Positions 2,462-58,232 of a DNA stretch of 64,000 nt are shown one piece after another (the stretch's first letter is position 1; every line of letters starts with the position of its first letter). The stretch comes from a virus. Both the position numbers and the translations under genes were made by a program. The notes beneath the pieces are model-generated. The model saw only the letters and a program-made list of their open reading frames with translations, ran no database searches and was not told the origin of the DNA. The stretch lies in IMG/VR virus record IMGVR_UViG_3300017917_004998, positions 32,001 through 96,000 of that record. The stretch is one strand, 5' to 3'.

Positions 2462-2950
2462 ATGATACGCTCAAACGTTAACCCACTCCACCTTCCCCAG
2501 CTTTTCTTCGCTGGACGTGCACTCCTCACTTTCCACAACACCGAGAGAAACACCCACATGACCGTGAAGGTAATCCAAGCAAGGGACAAGGCAGATCGCA
2601 AGATCAAGCTTCCCTACTTCTTCGTCAACATCTCCCTCCTCGGAGACAGCGACCAGGGATTCCGCTACGCCGGCATCATCTACCAGAACACTCTCACCTT
2701 CCGTCCCAACGAAGCAATCCTCCACGACACACAGATGCAGAAAACAATGCTCTTCATCATGGAGGCTATCAAGAACCCTCAGCTCCTCAGGGATCGCAAG
2801 GTGTCTCTGCTCCACGAAGGCAAATGCTGCCGGTGCTCTTTACCGCTTAGCAATCCCCAGTCAATCGACAGAGGGCTAGGAGACGACTGCCACGCCTACG
2901 TCTTCGGCACAGACAATCTCGCACAAAAGAAGAAGCTTGGTCTCTTATAA
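2462..2950 (+). CDS. DUF6011-type zinc-binding protein
   Basis: C-terminal CCRCSLPLSNPQSIDRGLGDDC matches the CxxCxxPLxxPxSIxRGxGxxC pattern. Confidence 0.75.
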   Translation: MIRSNVNPLHLPQLFFAGRALLTFHNTERNTHMTVKVIQARDKADRKIKLPYFFVNISLLGDSDQGFRYAGIIYQNTLTFRPNEAILHDTQMQKTMLFIMEAIKNPQLLRDRKVSLLHEGKCCRCSLPLSNPQSIDRGLGDDCHAYVFGTDNLAQKKKLGLL

Positions 2951-3014
2951 CCAAGCTTCCCATTTTTTCATCACGCACACAGACATTACATTTACAGCAT
3001 CAACAACAAAGAGA

Positions 3015-3959
3015 ATGGCAAGAAAAACATCCACCGGCATACGCAAGCCAATGTCACCAGAGGCTAGGGCAAAGATAGCAGAGGCTGTAAAAAAGTCTGC
3101 GCAGAAGAAGCGCATCGAAGCAGGCCTACCGCCAGACCAGCCACTTCCTGTCGGTCCAGTCAGGCAAAAGCCGATCGACATCATCCAGATGCGCAACCAG
3201 GAATTCGACCAGGACCTGTTCGTGCCAATGTCAACAGGCAGGGAGATAGACTTCCTGTTCTCTCTGGAGGGAGGTATCAACAAGGCAACGAACTACCTCG
3301 TCATCGGAGATCCAGGGGTGGGCAAATCGACAGTCACCCTCGACATCGTCTCAGACCTGGTCAGTCTTGGCTACCAGTGTCTGTTCATCTCAGCAGAGAT
3401 GACCAGGATAGATCTCTTCAAATACGTACAGAGGTTCCCCAAGTTTGGACACGTAGACACTCTCTTCCTTGGTGAGTACTGCGACGACAGCCCAAAGCTC
3501 GTTATCGAGGAGGCTCTGTCAAAAGGTTACGATCTCGTATTAATCGACTCATTCGTCGAGGTACAGGATTCAGTCAAGGAGTCAAACAAGGTGACAAGCT
3601 CATCAGCAGAGAAATGGCTCATCGATCAGATGCTCAAGAACAACCTTGGGGAGAACGACCAGGGGAAAAACACCACCTTCCTCTGTATCCAACAGGTGAC
3701 TAAGGGAGGAGTCTTCTTGGGCTCAAACCGACTCAAGCACAACACCACCGGGATGTTGGAGATCAGGTTCGACGAAGACTTACCAGGTGCTTCCTTCCTG
3801 CACTTCACCAAGAACAGACGTGGACCAACACAGGTTAAGATGTACTTCGAACTTGCCTCAGGCGGACAAGTCATCTACACAGATCCAACCGGACAGACAC
3901 TGGATCCAAAGAATCCGATCGAACAGTTGGCAGCCCTAGTCAACCCATTCGGAAAATAA
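3015..3959 (+). CDS. RadA/Sms-like RecA-fold ATPase with basic N-terminal extension
   Basis: GDPGVGKS Walker A, ISAEM, LVLIDS Walker B, KNRRG (cf. RadA KNRFG); no Zn finger or Lon-like domain. Confidence 0.75.
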   Translation: MARKTSTGIRKPMSPEARAKIAEAVKKSAQKKRIEAGLPPDQPLPVGPVRQKPIDIIQMRNQEFDQDLFVPMSTGREIDFLFSLEGGINKATNYLVIGDPGVGKSTVTLDIVSDLVSLGYQCLFISAEMTRIDLFKYVQRFPKFGHVDTLFLGEYCDDSPKLVIEEALSKGYDLVLIDSFVEVQDSVKESNKVTSSSAEKWLIDQMLKNNLGENDQGKNTTFLCIQQVTKGGVFLGSNRLKHNTTGMLEIRFDEDLPGASFLHFTKNRRGPTQVKMYFELASGGQVIYTDPTGQTLDPKNPIEQLAALVNPFGK

Positions 3960-49111: not shown

Positions 49112-50241
49112 TGAGAAAGATTACTAGCTACCGGGACTTCGTTTCTCTTAACGAGGAGGATTCAACACTATTGTCGAAATTGGATCAATATCGTCCAATT
49201 GCGTCTGGTATTGCTGAAGCCTTTGCTTTGTACGGCTACTTTATTTCATTGGCCGAGGAGAATATAGATTCTGAAGATTGGCAGAGACTGATCTCAGAAA
49301 TTACCGGTGCTAAAGCTTACGATCAGAAATGGAGTAAGATAATTTCTCTCTCGAAAAGCTTGCACAATAACCTTAAGCAGTATTCAGCAGAAAGAAATAG
49401 GTCTGTAGGTAACAGGTACATGGAAATTAAGGACCTTGGTGCAGAAGCCATCGGTATTACTGAAGCTTTAGAAAAGTTCAAAACAGCATCGGACCTCCTG
49501 GTTAAAAACATGGAGCCAGCAAAGGTGCAGACTAGATTAAATATGATAGACAATGCGGTCAAGGGTGTTCAGCCTTTTGGGATCAGCGAGTCTATCTTAA
49601 ACGAGTCACAGGAAAGACCGGCACCTGCTGAAGCTGCTGTTCTTTATTTTGCAGATAATCTGGCTTCACAGGTTGTCAACATGAGACTGACTCTTAGAAA
49701 CCTGGGTGACGTTTACCCTGCTTCAAGATCTTCTGTAGAAGCTACAGAGAACAACATTATAAACCCTTTAGCAGATGACATAAAGGGTATATTGGACATG
49801 GGAATCAAACACAAGGAAAATCTTCCGCTGTCAAAGTCTGTTAAAAAGGCTTATGCAGATAAAGGCTGGAGCGTAGAAAACCAGTTCCAAAAATATATGG
49901 TGGATGCTTTTGAAGAACTATCTTCAATCGAAGCAAGAATCATTGCAGTATATAAAAAGATTGAGGAATACAAAGGAACTATTGTCGACAAATATCAGAC
50001 AAGGACAGATGCTGGTGAATTCATAGAAGCAGGCAACAGAATTCTTAAGGGTGTAAAAGACAAGATATTGAAACAGCTTCAGATAAAAAGACTAGAAAAG
50101 AAATCAGGTCAGATAATTGCTGGCAGCTATGATAGACAAATGAAGAGATCTTTGGACTCTGAAGATCTCAAAACACAAAGTTCTTTGGTCAATGCAGACC
50201 AGCTTAGGGACTACCTAAAGAAGAAATATCAGGTAAATTAA
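49111..50241 (+). CDS. putative internal head protein
   Basis: TAATG overlap; MRKITSYRDFVSLNE. Confidence 0.7.
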   Translation: MRKITSYRDFVSLNEEDSTLLSKLDQYRPIASGIAEAFALYGYFISLAEENIDSEDWQRLISEITGAKAYDQKWSKIISLSKSLHNNLKQYSAERNRSVGNRYMEIKDLGAEAIGITEALEKFKTASDLLVKNMEPAKVQTRLNMIDNAVKGVQPFGISESILNESQERPAPAEAAVLYFADNLASQVVNMRLTLRNLGDVYPASRSSVEATENNIINPLADDIKGILDMGIKHKENLPLSKSVKKAYADKGWSVENQFQKYMVDAFEELSSIEARIIAVYKKIEEYKGTIVDKYQTRTDAGEFIEAGNRILKGVKDKILKQLQIKRLEKKSGQIIAGSYDRQMKRSLDSEDLKTQSSLVNADQLRDYLKKKYQVN

Positions 50242-50345
50242 ATTTTTTTTCAATTTTCCGAAACAAAAAGGCCAAAAGGGGGCTAAAATAATTATCTATG
50301 TTACCCCTGGTTAAGAATATATAGTAACCTATCATCTTAGTGGGC

Positions 50346-50510
50346 CTTAACCAAATCTTTAATTCTTAAGGTTCTTAACCCAAACTTTAGTTCTTAGAGT
50401 GCTTAATCCCAAACTTTAATTTCTAATTAGCTTAATCCCAAACTTTAATTTCTAATTAGCTTAATCCCAAACTTTATTATCTAGAGTGATTAGTCCCAAA
50501 CTTTATTAAT
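50346..50510 (+). repeat. 28-29 bp tandem repeat array upstream of uvsX
   Basis: Units at 50346, 50374, 50402, 50431, 50460, 50489 with core CTTAAT-CCCAAACTTTA; units 3 and 4 identical. Confidence 0.85.
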
Positions 50511-50626
50511 TAAAGAAGTTTGATAAGATATCACTTTGCCCAAGCTTTATTGATTGTTTAATAAAGCATTACTTGGGAAACATCCATTTGCACCAACAGT
50601 ATGATTATTAAAAATAATTAATAATT

Positions 50627-50914
50627 ATGGCAAAGACAACTAAGGAATTTTCATTTTTGGATTTAGACAAGGAACTATCAAAAATTACTGGGTTTGAAAC
50701 TGGATCGATTTTAGCAGACAACACTTTTAGTGAGGTTGATGAATGGATCCCAACAGGCAACTATTTATTGAATGCACAATTATCTGGAACCTTATTTGGT
50801 GGGATCCCAAACACAAGATCCCTCGGTTTGATGGGAGATCCAGGGTGTTTACGAAAAACCCAAAAGGTTAGGGTGTATGTATTAAAAACACAAGGTGAGT
50901 CGGATAGGACCTAA
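50627..50914 (+). CDS. uvsX: UvsX/RecA N-terminal piece plus 22-aa split-intein N fragment
   Basis: IPTGNYLLNAQLSG..FGGIP...GLMGDPG then CLRKTQKVRVY (intein Cys1 at 50846). Confidence 0.88.
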   Translation: MAKTTKEFSFLDLDKELSKITGFETGSILADNTFSEVDEWIPTGNYLLNAQLSGTLFGGIPNTRSLGLMGDPGCLRKTQKVRVYVLKTQGESDRT

Positions 50915-50952
50915 TTATAATCAAAATAGAAAAGTTAAGGATTAATAAAAAT

Positions 50953-52137
50953 ATGATGGATAGAATTCAAATAATTGAAGAGCTTAAGGCTTACCCAGAT
51001 TTTTACAGCGATGTTGATCTAGAGAAATTGACAGAATCTGAAATTTCAGAATTGTTCAATAAACACTGTGAGGAATTTTCGGAAGAGATTGAGATTGGGA
51101 CTGTTTTCAATGATATGAAAGCACAAAGAATTCTGGCAGACACCCCAGATGGATGGATCGAAGTTGGTAAATTCGTAAAAAAGACACCAAGGGATATACA
51201 CAGAGTTATTCTAAACGATGGATCTTTAGTTGAAGCTTCGTGCGATCACATGTTTGAAACTTCTAGAGGATGGGTGATGTCTAAAGATCTTCAAGATGAA
51301 GAACTTATCTTAACAAAAAACGGGTTCGTTGGGGTTAAGGAAAATGAAATTATAGCAAACGAAGAAGTTTATGATTGGGAGATCCTACACGAGAATCACC
51401 GATACTGGGTTGGTAATATGTCTTCACACAACACCGGTAAATCTTTCGTTTGCCTGAACGTTGCAAGAGAAGCTCAGAAAAAAGGATATGATGTAATCTA
51501 TTGTGATACCGAGGGAGCGATCGATAAAAGCTCTGCTATTAAATTTGGTATTGATGCTAACAAGGTAAGATATCAGCCAATCAAGACTGTAACTGAATTC
51601 CAGACCTTTGTAGCTAACCTTTTGGAGCTAGTTAAGAAAGCAAAGGCAAACGGAGCTAATCCTAAGATATTGCTGATTCTGGACTCTTTGGGTATGTTAA
51701 GCACTGATAAGGAATTAAGAGATGCGATCGAAGGTAAGAATGCTGCTGACATGGGAGCTAAAGCTAAGGAATTAAGAAAGTTATTCCGTGTTATCACGTT
51801 GGATCTGACTGCTGCTAAGATTCCACTGGTTTGTACGAATCACGTTTACTGTCTTACAGCAGGTCACAAAATCTTAATGTCCGATGACACATATAAAAAC
51901 ATCGAGGATATTGTAGTTGGTGATGTTGTTAAAACATTGGCCGGCGATAGAAACGTTTGTTCGACTTCTGAGTTTGAAGATAAGGAGGTTATTAAATTGA
52001 CTCTTGAAAACGGTCAAACCATCGAGTGCACTCCCAACCATAAATTTTTGGTTGAAAACGAATGGACCAACGAACAATCATGGAAATGCTCCGATGATTT
52101 GGTAGAGGGAGATTACATTTTAAGAACCAGCGAATAA
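50953..52137 (+). CDS. uvsX: UvsX middle piece flanked by intein-1 C fragment (160 aa) and intein-2 N fragment (95 aa)
   Basis: SCDH, VYD, SHN|TGKS completes Walker A; YCDTE, LILDSLG; NHVY|CLTAGHKI...CTPNH. Confidence 0.9.
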   Translation: MMDRIQIIEELKAYPDFYSDVDLEKLTESEISELFNKHCEEFSEEIEIGTVFNDMKAQRILADTPDGWIEVGKFVKKTPRDIHRVILNDGSLVEASCDHMFETSRGWVMSKDLQDEELILTKNGFVGVKENEIIANEEVYDWEILHENHRYWVGNMSSHNTGKSFVCLNVAREAQKKGYDVIYCDTEGAIDKSSAIKFGIDANKVRYQPIKTVTEFQTFVANLLELVKKAKANGANPKILLILDSLGMLSTDKELRDAIEGKNAADMGAKAKELRKLFRVITLDLTAAKIPLVCTNHVYCLTAGHKILMSDDTYKNIEDIVVGDVVKTLAGDRNVCSTSEFEDKEVIKLTLENGQTIECTPNHKFLVENEWTNEQSWKCSDDLVEGDYILRTSE

Positions 52138-52210
52138 TTAAACCGATTGATGTGGTATATGCACACAAAAGCATATACCATGTTTTCTGTAGAATAACTA
52201 ATATAAAATC

Positions 52211-52861
52211 ATGAAAAAAATAAAGATAATCAAAAAAGAAGTACTAGAGGAAAGAAAGAAAGTTTATGACGTAACTGTAGAGGGAGCACATCATTATTTC
52301 CTAGAAAATGGAGTAATCTCTCATAATACAGGGAGTGGATATATGCCAACTAAAGAATCTTCAGGTGGTGACGGACCTATTTTTGCAATGTCTGTAATCT
52401 CTTTCCTTTCTAAAGCACAGTTAAAAGAAGGTAATAGCACAACTAAGACTGGTATCGTTGTTACATCAAATCTTAAGAAAAGCAGATTCACAATCCCAGA
52501 GCCTGTTAAGTTTCACATCTCATTCCTAAACGGTATGAACCCTTATGTTGGTTTGCAAGATTTCGTTTCTTGGGAAGCTTGCGGAATTGGCAAAGGAAAG
52601 TTTGAAGAAGTGAAAAACGAAAGCGGAGTCAAAGAAACTGTCTTTATACCAAGCGAAAGTGCACAAGCCAGATGGGCGGTTAAACACTTGGGAAAAACTA
52701 TTACGTCATCACAGCTATTCACACCTGAAGTTTTCACCGATGAGGTTCTCAGACAACTTGACGAGAATGTTATTAAGAAGCATTTCATATTGCCAACAAT
52801 GGGAAACAATGATGAGATTGCAAACGCTTTGGAAGCTGATTTAGAAGATGAACAGGAATAA
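52211..52861 (+). CDS. uvsX: 39-aa intein-2 C fragment plus UvsX C-terminal piece
   Basis: VYDVTVEGAHHYFLENGVISHN|TGSGY..SSGG, KSRF, GMNPY.GL. Confidence 0.9.
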   Translation: MKKIKIIKKEVLEERKKVYDVTVEGAHHYFLENGVISHNTGSGYMPTKESSGGDGPIFAMSVISFLSKAQLKEGNSTTKTGIVVTSNLKKSRFTIPEPVKFHISFLNGMNPYVGLQDFVSWEACGIGKGKFEEVKNESGVKETVFIPSESAQARWAVKHLGKTITSSQLFTPEVFTDEVLRQLDENVIKKHFILPTMGNNDEIANALEADLEDEQE

Positions 52862-53144
52862 GATCAAGTTTAAGTATCTAATGAATCTGTGGAAGTCCCT
52901 TCCTTCATACCCTACCCAGGAAGATGTCATTTTTGAACTGACCTCTTACCTGGAAAAGGATGGTAGACCAAATGGAGAATTTTCGCTGCAAACCTTTAAT
53001 TCTATACTAGGTTCTAAATGGATGGAAACCAAACATTATGAACTAGTACAAAATATGATTTCTTCCGGGCAATTTATTGAAGTGTCTGGGCAAGGAACGA
53101 ATAAGGTAAAATATAAACTAAAGGAAAAACCAGAATACATTTAA
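52848..53144 (+). CDS. hypothetical protein in replication operon
   Basis: 98-aa ORF overlapping uvsX end. Confidence 0.65.
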   Translation: MNRNKIKFKYLMNLWKSLPSYPTQEDVIFELTSYLEKDGRPNGEFSLQTFNSILGSKWMETKHYELVQNMISSGQFIEVSGQGTNKVKYKLKEKPEYI

Positions 53145-53145
53145 G

Positions 53146-54447
53146 ATGGATTTATCACATTCGGAGAATATAATTCTAAGATACATTATCACACAGCCTG
53201 CCTATCTTGAAACATGCAGAGCGGAATATTTCAAGAATAGTGGATTTCAGGAGGTGTTTGTCATGTCTAAGAAGTTCTGGGAGAGATACCATGAAGTACC
53301 TACTCCAGACCAGCTCAAGGAAAATGTTAAATTGGAGGGTAAGACAGACAAAGTATCGCCGGGAGAAATACAAGCGATCTTTGATGTTGATCTTGCAAAA
53401 TATCAGGATGATTGGCTTACGGAAACGACTGAACTCTTTATTGAATACAAAAATCTTGTAACAAGTGCTGTAGATGGTGTTAAATATATCCAGGCAACAC
53501 CAGTCACTTCTGATAACATCAAAGAGGTTATTAACACCTTTAAGAATATTGTTGTTGAGAGAAATAATATAGATTTCTCGTTCGATGAGGGCTTGGATTT
53601 TTTCCATCCTGATAACCACAAACAGCTTACACACACAACATTCTCTTCTGGCTATCCTTTTATTGATACAGTATTGGGTGGAGGTTTTTCTGCCAAGTCA
53701 CTGTACGTCTTTATGGGGATGCCAAAAGTTGGTAAATCGCTATGGCTTGGTAATCTTGCAGCTCAAGCAGTAAAGTCAGGACACAACGTAGCAGTTATTT
53801 CACTAGAGATGAACGACAGAAAGTATGTCAAGAGGCTAGGTGCAAACCTGCTTGGTATTCCTGTCAATGAGTATGGCAACACAGCGGAGGATGAACAGAA
53901 GATGAAAAAGAAGATCAGTTCTCTTACATATTCAAATCTAAGTGTTCCTGGTAGACTGTTTGTAAAAGAATTCCCGACTTCTCAAGCTTCTGCTCTTGAT
54001 GTTGAACGATATCTTAGAAAAGTTGAAGAGCAGAATGGAATTAAATTCAAGGTAGTTGTCATAGACTACATCAACATCATGAAAAACTGGAGGAATCCAA
54101 ACTCGGAAAACACCTATATGAAGATTAAACAGCTTGCCGAGGATATTCGCGGTGTGGCGATGCTTAACGGCTGGGCAATTTTGACTGCAACACAGACTAA
54201 GCAAAGCGATTTTGACTCCACAGATCTTAGCATTAACTCGGCAGCAGAATCGTCCGGTCTAGTTGCAACTGTAGATGGACTTTTCGGAATCATACAGGAT
54301 CCAATGATGTATGCAAACAGAGAATATAAACTCAAACTGATTGCGAACCGAGACGATGGATATAAAAATGCATACAAAATGTTTAATGTAGATTATACAT
54401 ACATGAGGATCATTGAAAACGGAGTTCCGATGCACGCAGAGGGTTAA
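53146..54447 (+). CDS. T4 gp41-like replicative helicase (DnaB family)
   Basis: GMPKVGKS, ISLEM, VVIDY, TATQ; no intein. Confidence 0.9.
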   Translation: MDLSHSENIILRYIITQPAYLETCRAEYFKNSGFQEVFVMSKKFWERYHEVPTPDQLKENVKLEGKTDKVSPGEIQAIFDVDLAKYQDDWLTETTELFIEYKNLVTSAVDGVKYIQATPVTSDNIKEVINTFKNIVVERNNIDFSFDEGLDFFHPDNHKQLTHTTFSSGYPFIDTVLGGGFSAKSLYVFMGMPKVGKSLWLGNLAAQAVKSGHNVAVISLEMNDRKYVKRLGANLLGIPVNEYGNTAEDEQKMKKKISSLTYSNLSVPGRLFVKEFPTSQASALDVERYLRKVEEQNGIKFKVVVIDYINIMKNWRNPNSENTYMKIKQLAEDIRGVAMLNGWAILTATQTKQSDFDSTDLSINSAAESSGLVATVDGLFGIIQDPMMYANREYKLKLIANRDDGYKNAYKMFNVDYTYMRIIENGVPMHAEG

Positions 54448-54955: not shown

Positions 54956-56073
54956 TGGAATCTGTTTTTCCTAGCATAAAAAACGAAAAAGCAAAGAGAG
55001 TATGGTTAATAACCGATACCCATTTGGGCGTAAAAAATAGCTCAAATGAATGGATAGAAATCATCGATACCTATTTCAAGGATTTCTTTTTTCCACTGGT
55101 TAAAAAGCACTACAGACCTGGGGATGTTCTTATCCACTTAGGTGATTGGTACGATTCTAGACAGAGCGTCAATCTAAGAGTATTAAATCTAGGTGTTGAG
55201 ATTGCAGAGAAGATGTCGCTCACGTTTCCAGATGGCATTTGGATTCTAATCGGCAACCATGACATATTTGGGAAAAACACAAACGATGTGAATTCGTTAA
55301 AAAGCATCAAATGGATTCCTTCTATTACAATTTGCGAAGAACCTGCCAGCATCCAATTGGGAGAAAAGTCATTCTTTATGATGCCATGGAGAAAAGACTC
55401 AGAGACCGAAGAGTCCTGCTTGGATAGTGCAGAATACCACGACTATCTTTGTTGTCACTCTGATATCAGAGGACTTAAGTTTAACAGGTACGTGAACGTT
55501 GAGCACGGCTCAGATTCAACTAAGTTTAGAAAATTTGGCAGGGTTTATTCCGGACACATTCATTATGCACAAGAGTCTGGAAATATAAAAATGCTTGGCT
55601 CACCTTATGAGCTAACTAGATCTGATATGGACAATCCGAAGGGTATTACTCTTTTGGATTTAGAAACCGGGCAAGAAACGTTCTTTGAAAATGATATTTC
55701 TCCGAAGTTCAAAAGATATCAGTTTGAAGAAATTCTAGAGAAAACCATAGATGATGTCAATTCAGATTTCGAGAACAACTTTGTTGATATCATGATAGAT
55801 CCAAGAATGGCTTTAAAGGCACCACTGAACATTCTAACGGACTCTATAGTAAATCCAAGAAAGATATCTTTCCATCCCTACGATCCTAATCAGGCTTCTT
55901 CGCTAGAGGAAAGAATGAGATCTACCGACGAGAGACAATTCGATGTGCTTGACTTCATCGAGGAATATGTCTCACAGATGGATCATGACAAGGAAACCAG
56001 AGATAGAATACTTTCAACAATCAATAAATTGCATTCAATTGTAATTACACAGGATCAGGACAAAAAGATATGA
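54952..56073 (+). CDS. T4 gp47-like (Mre11/SbcD) nuclease subunit
   Basis: ITDTHLG, LGDWYD, GNHD, SGHIH. Confidence 0.92.
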   Translation: MMESVFPSIKNEKAKRVWLITDTHLGVKNSSNEWIEIIDTYFKDFFFPLVKKHYRPGDVLIHLGDWYDSRQSVNLRVLNLGVEIAEKMSLTFPDGIWILIGNHDIFGKNTNDVNSLKSIKWIPSITICEEPASIQLGEKSFFMMPWRKDSETEESCLDSAEYHDYLCCHSDIRGLKFNRYVNVEHGSDSTKFRKFGRVYSGHIHYAQESGNIKMLGSPYELTRSDMDNPKGITLLDLETGQETFFENDISPKFKRYQFEEILEKTIDDVNSDFENNFVDIMIDPRMALKAPLNILTDSIVNPRKISFHPYDPNQASSLEERMRSTDERQFDVLDFIEEYVSQMDHDKETRDRILSTINKLHSIVITQDQDKKI

Positions 56074-56264
56074 AAATAACAAAAATTGAGTGGAGAAATT
56101 TTTCCTCTTACGGAAACAGAACCCAGGAATTAAATCTGGGTAATGAATCAAGTCTATTTCAGATAAACGGAGAAAATGGTACGGGTAAGTGTCTTTATCC
56201 CGATACAATTCTAAAAGTTAAGGTATCCAAAGAAACTTTAGCCAAAATAAACAACTTACGTTAA
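56070..56264 (+). CDS. gp46 (Rad50/SbcC) N-terminal piece plus 24-aa split-intein N fragment
   Basis: KIEWRNFSSYGN...INGENGTGK then CLYPDTILKV (Cys1 at 56190). Confidence 0.88.
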   Translation: MKITKIEWRNFSSYGNRTQELNLGNESSLFQINGENGTGKCLYPDTILKVKVSKETLAKINNLR

Positions 56265-56312: not shown

Positions 56313-58232
56313 ATGGAGGAAATTGAAATCACTATTAAGGATCTGCATGATTTTTTAACACTACACCCAGAAGAGAAGGGAAATATTTTAATCGAAGGAA
56401 AGGATGGATGGTGCGAGATTGATGAATCTGCAATCACTGCTCCAGATTCAGTTTTTTACACTATTCGAACTGAGAATGGAAAGGAAGCAAAGTGTTCTCC
56501 TGATCACCAGTTCTATAATGACACCTGGATTAAATGTAAATACCTAAATGTTGGCTATCCAATTCTAACCGATCTTGGATATTCTAAAATAACACATCTG
56601 GAGTTAGAAAAAGAAAAAGCAGACCTTTATGATATTGAAGTGAGAGATTCCCACAATTATTATGGAAATGGAATACTCTCCCACAACTCATCCATCTCGC
56701 ATGCTATTTCGTATGGCCTATATGGAAAGGTTGAAGGAAAAAAACTAAAAGATATACCAAACAGGATCAATGGTAATGCCTGGGTAAGAATAACACTAGA
56801 TCATCTGGGATCTTCCGTTGTAATAGAAAGAGGAATAGATCCGAATCTTTTCAGGCTTTTTATCGATGGCAAGGAGTTTGATCAAGCAGGAAGCAGATCA
56901 CTCCAGGATTATCTTACTGATGATATTCTCGGTATTCCATATTACGTGTTCAACAACACGATATCTCTTTCCATCAACGACTTCAAGAGCTTTATTAAAA
57001 TGACACCTCAGGATAAAAGAGGAATCATAGATAAAATATTCGGATTCCACATCCTGAATCAGATGAGGGAGATCCTTAAATCCGAGACCAAGAAGATAAA
57101 GGAATCACTTGATACACTTTCAGGGAAACTTATTTCACTAGACAGCTCAATCAAGAGCTCTTCAGCCGAAATGGAATCCCTAATTAATGAAATAGAGGAG
57201 GAATCTGTAGCCCTAATCGAAGATCTTACATCTAAGATTACAACATTCGAAAATCTACAAACACTCCACAATCAGAAGATGTCTGAATTCAGAATCGGAG
57301 AAAGTGAGCTAAATCAGAAAACCAGAAACACCAATTCTCTTTTGATAAATGCGCAGTCCAAATTGAGAGATCTGGAGAGAAAGCTAAAACTTTATGATCA
57401 GAACATTTGTCCGACTTGTGAGGGATCCCTGGAAACCGATTTTCACGCCAATATGAAATCGTCTATGTTATCTGAAAAAAAATCTATTGATGACAACATA
57501 GCAGAGATAGAGAAAACGCTAGGAGAACTTAGAATTCTCGAATTAAATTGCGTTACAACCAGAAACGAACTTGTTGAAAAGGGAATGAAAATAAAGAATA
57601 AGCTTGATTCAATCCATCAAGAATTAAAGCTTCTAAAATCTAAAAAGGGAGACAAACAGGCACAGTCTTTACAAAGAATCATAGATTCTCTTACTTCAGA
57701 TCAGGAAAATACAATCTCGATCAAATTCAAAGAGGAAGAAAAACACAATTGGCTTAAAACTATCGACGAAATACTTGGCGAGAAGGGTGTTAAACAGATG
57801 GCGATTAGAACCATTCTACCTTCTCTAAATTCAGAAATTCTAGAGCTTCTGAGAAAGATGAATCTAAGCTACCAGGTAGTTTTTGACGAGGAATTTAATG
57901 CCATGATATATCAGATGGGAATTGAGGTTCCGTCGCAGACATTAAGCACTGGTGAAATGAAAAAAATAGATTTCGTTGTTCTGGTTGCGATTATGAAGCT
58001 TATGAAGCTTAAATTTAGCTCGATAAATCTTCTTTTCCTCGATGAGCTTTTCAGCTCTGTTGATCCAGAAGGTGTTCATTCGATCCTTGGGATTCTCAAA
58101 AATTCCTGCTCTGAACTTGGACTAAATATATTCGTCATTAATCACGCACCTATGCCACATGAGATATTTGATTGGAAAATAGATGTTCAGAAAAAGAACA
58201 ACTTCTCGTCTTTTACACTCGAGAAAATTTAA
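56313..58232 (+). CDS. 125-aa intein C fragment plus gp46 remainder
   Basis: CSPDH, LYDIEV, GILSHN|SSI; CPTC zinc hook; LSTGE signature; FLDELFSSVD. Confidence 0.9.
   Translation: MEEIEITIKDLHDFLTLHPEEKGNILIEGKDGWCEIDESAITAPDSVFYTIRTENGKEAKCSPDHQFYNDTWIKCKYLNVGYPILTDLGYSKITHLELEKEKADLYDIEVRDSHNYYGNGILSHNSSISHAISYGLYGKVEGKKLKDIPNRINGNAWVRITLDHLGSSVVIERGIDPNLFRLFIDGKEFDQAGSRSLQDYLTDDILGIPYYVFNNTISLSINDFKSFIKMTPQDKRGIIDKIFGFHILNQMREILKSETKKIKESLDTLSGKLISLDSSIKSSSAEMESLINEIEEESVALIEDLTSKITTFENLQTLHNQKMSEFRIGESELNQKTRNTNSLLINAQSKLRDLERKLKLYDQNICPTCEGSLETDFHANMKSSMLSEKKSIDDNIAEIEKTLGELRILELNCVTTRNELVEKGMKIKNKLDSIHQELKLLKSKKGDKQAQSLQRIIDSLTSDQENTISIKFKEEEKHNWLKTIDEILGEKGVKQMAIRTILPSLNSEILELLRKMNLSYQVVFDEEFNAMIYQMGIEVPSQTLSTGEMKKIDFVVLVAIMKLMKLKFSSINLLFLDELFSSVDPEGVHSILGILKNSCSELGLNIFVINHAPMPHEIFDWKIDVQKKNNFSSFTLEKI

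Follow-up and report, generated by a model that had tools for sequence, protein, structure and literature searches.

The uvsX locus considered here lies in a 64,000-nt stretch of viral DNA, hereafter the window, which corresponds to positions 32,001-96,000 of the IMG/VR record IMGVR_UViG_3300017917_004998 and supplies the coordinates given below. The source record is a linear viral contig of 123 kb with an estimated completeness of approximately 52%. The locus is comprised of three consecutive open reading frames (ORFs) on the plus strand, in frames 1, 0 and 1, in which the pieces of a UvsX recombinase (the exteins) are flanked by what appear to be the N-terminal (IntN) and C-terminal (IntC) fragments of two split inteins, numbered 1 and 2 in order of their occurrence:

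50627-50914, plus strand: ORF1, 95 aa, with extein residues 1-73 ending in GLMGDPG, then Cys and 21 further residues
50953-52137, plus strand: ORF2, 394 aa, with IntC1 at residues 1-160, extein at 161-299 and IntN2 at 300-394
52211-52861, plus strand: ORF3, 216 aa, with IntC2 at residues 1-39 and the C-extein at 40-216, the first residue of which is Thr
50627-50845, plus strand: UvsX N-extein, residues 1-73, ending in GDPG, the first half of the Walker A motif; phrog_97 match
50846-50914, plus strand: IntN1, 22 aa (CLRKTQKVRVY...), net charge +4, TAA stop; atypical split intein N-fragment
50915-50952, plus strand: gap 1, 38 nt, 58% A, between ORF1 and ORF2
50953-51432, plus strand: IntC1, 160 aa, ending in SSHN, net charge -19; VidaL-like by sequence and fold
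51433-51849, plus strand: middle extein, a 139-aa RecA core running from TGKS (Walker A) to NHVY; phrog_97 and 7z3m matches
51850-52137, plus strand: IntN2, 95 aa (CLTAGHKIL...), block B TPNH, net charge -11, TAA stop; PF14890 and TIGR01445 matches
52138-52210, plus strand: gap 2, 73 nt, holding a hairpin, between ORF2 and ORF3
52211-52327, plus strand: IntC2, 39 aa (MKKIKIIKK...VYDVTV...ISHN), net charge +2; TIGR01443 match
52328-52861, plus strand: UvsX C-extein, 177 aa, with Thr at position +1, then a stop; 7z3m, 3io5 and phrog_18112 matches

These are separate ORFs on one genome, each interruption being made by a stop codon (50912 and 52135) and followed by a new ATG (50953 and 52211). Neither gap holds a plus-strand ORF of 25 or more residues, and no endonuclease gene is present in either. 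An AAGGA motif occurs in gap 1 at 50937-50941, 11 nt upstream of the ORF2 ATG, and a promoter and terminator scan of 50200-53300 gave nothing better than shuffled sequence. A preliminary description of this DNA, drawn from the letters alone, had given the fragment lengths, the junctions and the sizes of two endonuclease-free gaps with A-rich leaders, and had pointed to opposite charges on partner fragments. A script run on the sequence reproduced every length, junction and gap size, the ORF scan agrees on the missing endonucleases, the A-rich leader is evident in gap 1, and the computed charges are indeed opposed within each pair (+4/-19 and -11/+2). The hairpin of gap 2 (52149-52184; 14 bp, with UUUUCUGU directly after it) has a z-score of -4.27, none of 200 shuffles folding as well; it may act in attenuation or in RNA stability, or be the scar of an endonuclease loss.

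Removal of both inteins in silico gives a 389-aa product with a restored Walker A motif, GDPGTGKS, that aligns without gaps and with 94% identity to intein-free homologues of the same length. Junction 1 (GDPG-TGKS) is the same as in intein-free alleles, while junction 2 reads NHVY-TGSGY in the window and NHVYAGGGY in the intein-free alleles, so that the nucleophile Thr of the intein-bearing allele takes the place of an Ala in the empty one. The exteins each match the UvsX family. The N-extein matches phrog_97 (UvsX-like recombinase; E 1.4e-8) and aligns with residues 2-63 of 9gbg and 20-76 of 7z3m; the middle extein, recognised as a RecA core by Pfam and NCBIfam between the intein regions of ORF2, matches phrog_97 (E 3.9e-30) and 7z3m (E 2.4e-25); and the C-extein aligns with residues 215-305 of 7z3m and 183-316 of 3io5 (T4 UvsX) and matches the recombinase family phrog_18112. 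Together they tile 7z3m collinearly and without overlap, ORF1 residues 18-73 falling on 20-76, ORF2 residues 159-300 on 75-216 and ORF3 residues 37-128 on 215-305; at junction 1, the last extein residue of ORF1 (73) falls on chain residue 76 and the first of ORF2 (161) on residue 77. The spliced product is thus a collinear match to UvsX with its Walker A motif restored. The middle extein is 100% identical as a protein to the intein-free allele P0039, whereas the nearest intein-free loci fetched are approximately 82% identical in DNA, which indicates strong constraint on the extein.

Sequence comparison and predicted fold place intein 1 among the atypically split inteins of the VidaL type. IntC1 matches the sequence of the VidaL crystal structure (PDB 6vgv) with an E value of 6.4e-8, and its score against the PT-HINT profile is borderline (27.6 against a cut-off of 27.7). 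An AlphaFold (AF2) model of ORF2, with a mean predicted local distance difference test score (pLDDT) of 73.6, has confident helices at residues 1-55 and a HINT beta domain at 60-158. A Foldseek search of the PDB with this model returned 6vgv as the top match (E 2.6e-9; template modelling (TM) score 0.74), followed by gp41-1 and other inteins, with the core matching phage UvsX. The catalytic set of intein 1 is comprised of Cys1, block B SCDH (with Ser in place of Thr), block F VYDWE and a terminal SSHN, followed by Thr at +1. In the numbering of P0001, a protein identical to that of ORF2 but starting one residue later, found on a further contig of separate origin (Logan), residues H98, D140, H158 and N159 of IntC1 are invariant across eight clusters of homologous middle pieces. 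In IntN1, residues C74, L75, V81, Y84 and K87 of the first piece are invariant in seven homologous first pieces. The sizes of the two fragments, 22 and 160 aa, agree with those of atypical split inteins, which have an IntN of approximately 15-37 aa and a long IntC (range from PMC13014065).

A natural relative, P0012, in which intein 1 is contiguous, begins the intein with CLRGTQEVRVF..., followed by a linker and an IntC1-like domain. In its AlphaFold model the IntN1-like segment (77-86) is a confident strand and forms the first strands of a VidaL-like fold, and residues 68-261, as a stand-in for the window pair, superpose on the whole of 6vgv with a Z score of 20.9 and a root-mean-square deviation of 1.8 A over 143 of 145 residues. 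The first 58 residues of IntC1 (50953-51126) make up a helical extension that is conserved and strongly acidic (pLDDT 82-91; E9, L10, E29, F34 and H37 invariant in P0001 numbering) and is approximately 35 residues longer than its counterpart in VidaL or in phage PA5oct, considered below. An Atlas structure search with this extension found only weak SAP/Rho_N-like helix matches, with TM scores of 0.5-0.63 over approximately 40-47 residues and feature scores of at most 0.79.

Intein 2 has the marks of a canonical split mini-intein. In a Pfam search of ORF2 and ORF3, PF14890 was matched at 53.4 bits (cut-off 35.8; E 3.4e-14), and in an NCBIfam search TIGR01445 was matched at 35.3 (cut-off 24.5; E 1.7e-8) and TIGR01443, in IntC2, at 32 (cut-off 15.6; E 1e-7). 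Its catalytic set is comprised of Cys1, block B TPNH, block F VYDVT and ISHN, followed by Thr at +1; residues C299 and H362 of IntN2 (P0001 numbering) are invariant in the eight middle-piece clusters, and IntC2 is conserved in seven homologous third pieces. Both inteins therefore carry the residue set of class 1 inteins, with intein 2 also scoring above the curated cut-offs. The two share only approximately 21% identity over 126 residues and are, judged from these alignments, two different inteins. The preliminary description had held that one UvsX of about 390 aa is spread over three genes, that splicing restores its Walker A motif, and that one atypical and one conventional split intein join the parts, and it had proposed intein profiles as a check. 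The collinear extein matches and the 389-aa in-silico product bear out the first two claims, and the VidaL match, the Pfam and NCBIfam profiles above their cut-offs and the low mutual identity bear out the third.

The same architecture recurs elsewhere. Scans of IMG/VR and JGI metagenome contigs yielded 148 loci, among which at least ten besides the window, from other metagenomes, are split at both sites and at the same two break positions. These relatives commonly carry homing-endonuclease-like ORFs in their gaps. Locus L069, the middle piece of which is 80% identical to that of the window, has such ORFs of 426 aa in gap 1 and 334 aa in gap 2; L006, which equals L010, has ORFs of 380 and 345 aa, respectively. 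Gap 1 is empty and gap 2 is occupied in L070 and L080, the reverse holds in L007 and L082, and L090 retains an endonuclease-like ORF in gap 1 with a 97-aa remnant in gap 2. Across the relatives, the gap 1 ORFs span 380-432 aa, one of them with a faint Vsr-like match, and the gap 2 ORFs span 334-355 aa and belong to Pfam DUF7487. Only the window lacks an endonuclease-like ORF in both gaps among the loci examined. As a side observation, the gap 2 ORFs L069:3725-4729, L006:4692-5729 and L090:3720-4013 (the remnant) include DUF7487 matches with E values of 2.8e-36 and 2.6e-15, and the fact that these ORFs lie between the halves of split inteins points to DUF7487 being a family of homing endonucleases.

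Searched against 5.8 billion proteins, ORF2 gives a measure of the allelic states, counted here as clusters among the 120 matches listed. Intein-free proteins, mostly of 389 aa, make up 81 clusters; intein 1 alone is present and split in 14, and intein 2 alone in 8. A middle piece of the window type (IntC1-core-IntN2), at 45-100% identity, accounts for 8 clusters. Four clusters combine a split intein 1 with a contiguous intein 2, one (P0012) combines a contiguous intein 1 with a split intein 2, and one (P0026) has only intein 2, in contiguous form. The splicing residues are invariant across eight middle pieces (46-80% identity), seven first pieces and seven third pieces, with Thr, Ser or Cys at +1 in the relatives.

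In comparisons of the window with L069 and L070, the proportion of nonsynonymous differences (pN) is 0.03-0.35 and that of synonymous differences (pS) is 0.48-0.97 over all seven segments, figures to be read with the saturation of synonymous sites in most segments, which leaves formal dN/dS computable for a few only. Since pN is far below pS in every segment, purifying selection acts on all seven, and the intein fragments are maintained as proteins; no frameshift or internal stop occurs in any of the seven. Intein 2 (51850-52327) stands apart from its surroundings in the comparison with L069, having a pS of 0.48 and a DNA identity of 86-89%, whereas the flanking exteins have a pS of 0.82-0.97. 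This lower pS and higher DNA identity suggest that intein 2 has moved laterally between lineages more recently.

The reading that we favour, and to which we would assign a probability of roughly 0.85 on these sequence comparisons, is that the products of the three genes are joined by the two split inteins into one UvsX. Two different inteins would each have entered uvsX at a site of its own, both being now split and without their homing endonucleases, and the three co-oriented, closely spaced genes would be translated separately. The basic 22-aa IntN1 would supply the first beta strands that the acidic 160-aa IntC1 lacks, as expected of an S1-type, VidaL-like split, and the acidic 95-aa IntN2 would pair with the basic 39-aa IntC2 in a canonical split at the endonuclease-insertion site. 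Each rebuilt class 1 intein would then ligate its flanks by means of Cys1, the block B His, the block F Asp, the terminal His-Asn and the Thr at +1. The end product would be the 389-aa UvsX, in which the Walker A motif (GDPG-TGKS) is intact and NHVY-TGSG runs on without a break. The anatomy, homology, conservation and selection are directly observed; that the pieces are spliced in trans, in what order and how efficiently, and that the two pairs do not cross-react, we infer. As the middle piece has an IntC-cargo-IntN topology, a cross-reaction of its own fragments would cyclise or concatenate the core; the inteins have little sequence in common and are split at different places, as would be expected had such a reaction been selected against.

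Some points weigh against this reading. Upstream of ORF1 and ORF3, a clear Shine-Dalgarno motif was not found, and the hairpin of gap 2 could conceivably lower the expression of the third piece. Thr is a less common +1 nucleophile, and it is present in both inteins. An intact second uvsX may also be located elsewhere, given the approximately 52% completeness of the contig, in which case the double trans-splicing would not be obligatory, as the preliminary description took it to be; within the 123-kb contig, the sole other RecA-superfamily match is a weak ATPase at 2937-3959. That ORF encodes 340 aa with a P-loop and has weak KaiC, DnaB-like and RecA matches (RecA 19.5 bits, below the cut-off), and it does not belong to the UvsX family.

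Other explanations of the broken gene fare less well. The intein halves might serve as docking domains by which the three polypeptides assemble non-covalently into a recombinase, with no peptide ligation, and the opposite charges of the partners would favour such tight association. A comparable case has been described, in which the large subunit of a phage ribonucleotide reductase is split by a mobile element and assembled by interaction domains (PMC3045599). Docking, however, would have no need of Cys1, the block B His, the block F Asp, the His-Asn pair or a Thr, Ser or Cys at +1, all of which are kept at 46-80% identity, and with the first break inside the Walker A loop a bulky intein would be likely to obstruct the ATP site. 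We therefore regard this explanation as improbable.

Decay would account for the loss of both endonuclease genes, and a second copy of uvsX is possible in a contig of which approximately half is present; on that view the locus is a non-functional uvsX deteriorating after intein and endonuclease invasion, and recombination is provided by another gene or by the host. Endonuclease loss is itself expected late in the homing cycle. A decaying gene would hardly keep all seven segments free of frameshifts and stops with pN far below pS everywhere, nor a core identical in protein to intein-free alleles at approximately 82% DNA identity, and the three-piece architecture persists in lineages down to 45% identity, all of which makes decay a very improbable account. 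The last explanation, to which we give the least credence, is that errors of assembly or sequencing have produced the stops and gaps, or that recoding bypasses them, and that the inteins are contiguous, as in Salicola phage SCTP-2; contiguous forms of both inteins do occur among relatives (P0012, P0026, P0011 and gene 204 of SCTP-2). Each break, however, consists of a stop, 38 or 73 nt of non-coding DNA and a new ATG, with break 1 also shifting the frame. The breaks recur at both positions in ten independent assemblies, the majority of which hold complete endonuclease genes between the pieces, and the identical protein, P0001, comes from a second contig. Double trans-splicing thus remains the preferred account.

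Many elements of this locus have known counterparts. VidaL (6vgv/6vgw) is a natural atypical split intein with the same HINT variant as intein 1, likewise split near the N-terminus, in intein 1 probably after the first strands, and dependent on the Cys at position 1. The VidaL inteins are reportedly those named T4Lh-1 and UvsX-2 by Neugebauer and colleagues in 2017. The VidaL split falls at position S1, and its IntN has 16 aa (PMC13014065). Intein 1 differs from it in its sequence (identity approximately 27-35%), its longer IntN of 22 aa, the extra acidic helical extension of approximately 35 residues in IntC1 and a Thr +1 that lies inside the Walker A motif. In the fractured genes described by Dassa, London, Stoddard, Schueler-Furman and Pietrokovski in 2009 (PMC2677866), there is one split per gene with, by definition, a free-standing endonuclease between the halves, a feature that the window lacks; the gp41-7 locus also has no endonuclease gene, and UvsX appears in that work only as an intact neighbouring gene (PMC2677866). 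The uvsX locus resembles those loci in that a split intein breaks a phage replication or recombination gene, the pieces lying on one strand with little non-coding DNA between them and with opposite local charges on the halves, but differs in that a single gene is split twice, in two topologies, and that the endonuclease is missing.

Counterparts are also known from cultured phages. Pseudomonas phage PA5oct has an 81-aa ORF, a 477-aa ORF and gp274, with an intein atypically split, as in the window, at the shared Walker A site (G-SGKS) and an IntN of 17 aa (CLPETAKVKIRL...). Unlike the window it has only two pieces and no second intein, and the 477-aa ORF in its gap is probably an endonuclease; in the PA5oct record the UvsX piece is marked as detected by electrospray ionization tandem mass spectrometry (ESI-MS/MS). 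Gene 204 of SCTP-2 encodes a UvsX with two inteins, the first at the Walker A site as in the window. Both, however, are contiguous within one 661-aa ORF, and the second follows ...ISGG, approximately 16 residues downstream of NHTY. Salmonella phage CF-SP2, an example of the T4-like phages of Gelderlandvirus type with a fractured uvsX, has uvsX_2, an endonuclease and uvsX_1 in series, with a canonical split intein in the L2-loop region; as with intein 2 of the window, the N-piece ends in IntN and the C-piece begins with IntC, but the insertion is at ...TGG-C rather than NHVY-C, a NUMOD-containing endonuclease occupies the gap and there is no Walker A intein. Inteins enter UvsX at no fewer than three sites: (a) within Walker A, at G-[TSC]GK; (b) immediately behind NH[VT]Y, as in the window; and (c) after ...GG, approximately 16 residues beyond site (b), as in CF-SP2, L019 and SCTP-2. 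When 50,697 phage records were searched, SCTP-2 alone matched over 80% or more of ORF2, and no double split UvsX is present among the cultured-phage matches listed.

The overall design has a man-made parallel. Engineered IntA(C)-cargo-IntB(N) constructs have been used in protein transposition and three-fragment ligation (PMC11185735; PMC7090010), and they follow the same logic as the window, with an atypical intein (VidaL or Cat) on the N side, a canonical one (Cfa) on the C side and a requirement that the pairs be orthogonal; the window locus differs in being natural and conserved. The literature searched yielded no account of a natural protein that three genes encode and two split inteins join, which is weak evidence of absence given incomplete coverage of the literature, with few subscription journals. 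The preliminary description took it as established that split inteins, some with very short N fragments, occur in replication genes of T4-like phages. The novelty that it implied was overstated, for VidaL-type atypical split inteins, fractured genes (PMC2677866) and fractured uvsX are already known from structures and cultured phages. Particular to this locus is that a single gene is split both atypically and canonically, that both endonucleases have been lost and that very close intein-free alleles exist. With its three pieces and no endonuclease, it is one of the rare cases in which nature presents a protein-ligation scheme known from engineering.

Protein ligation, protein labelling and gene-therapy vectors all draw heavily on split inteins, and assembly from several fragments calls for pairs that are orthogonal. 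Provided that the three pieces are spliced as proposed, the locus provides two inteins that have had to remain compatible in a single protein during evolution, one atypical with a short IntN and one canonical, each followed by Thr at +1. The public data supply a comparative series of intein-free, single, double, contiguous and split alleles, with and without endonuclease, from which the course of intein invasion, splitting and endonuclease loss might be traced. For the biology of these phages, recombination-dependent replication in this lineage probably relies on two post-translational ligations.

The locus is not alone on its contig. A gp46/Rad50-like ATPase encoded at 56070-56264 and 56313-58232 carries a third split intein, also atypical: its N-extein ends in GENGTGK and is followed by a 24-aa IntN (CLYPDTILKVKV...), a 48-nt gap and a 125-aa IntC that ends in LSHN before a Ser. 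In their C-terminal parts this intein is approximately 25% identical to intein 1 of UvsX and approximately 30% identical to intein 2. Past the end of the window, at G000:C1:105642-105947, lies an IntC1-like segment with 32% identity over 105 aa. With the UvsX pair, the gp46 intein and this segment, the contig carries at least four split inteins.

A bolder proposal, which we consider unlikely but worth stating, is that the endonuclease-free, three-piece form is more than a stranded parasite and serves as a domesticated control device, the recombinase becoming active only after three separately translated pieces have met and two strictly orthogonal splicings have occurred. The acidic extension of IntC1 might then help to capture the basic IntN1, or prevent the core from binding DNA before ligation, and the different split topologies might have been selected to stop the middle piece from cyclising. 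Were this so, the phage would possess four mutually orthogonal natural split inteins, that of gp46 included.

The two intein families appear to occur together in other viral contigs as well (L023:5687-7447, L028:4631-6397 and L035-L039), where an ORF of approximately 590 aa that follows an intact or fractured uvsX contains IntC1-like and IntN2-like segments. This ORF probably encodes a helicase bearing inteins of the same two families as the UvsX of the window.

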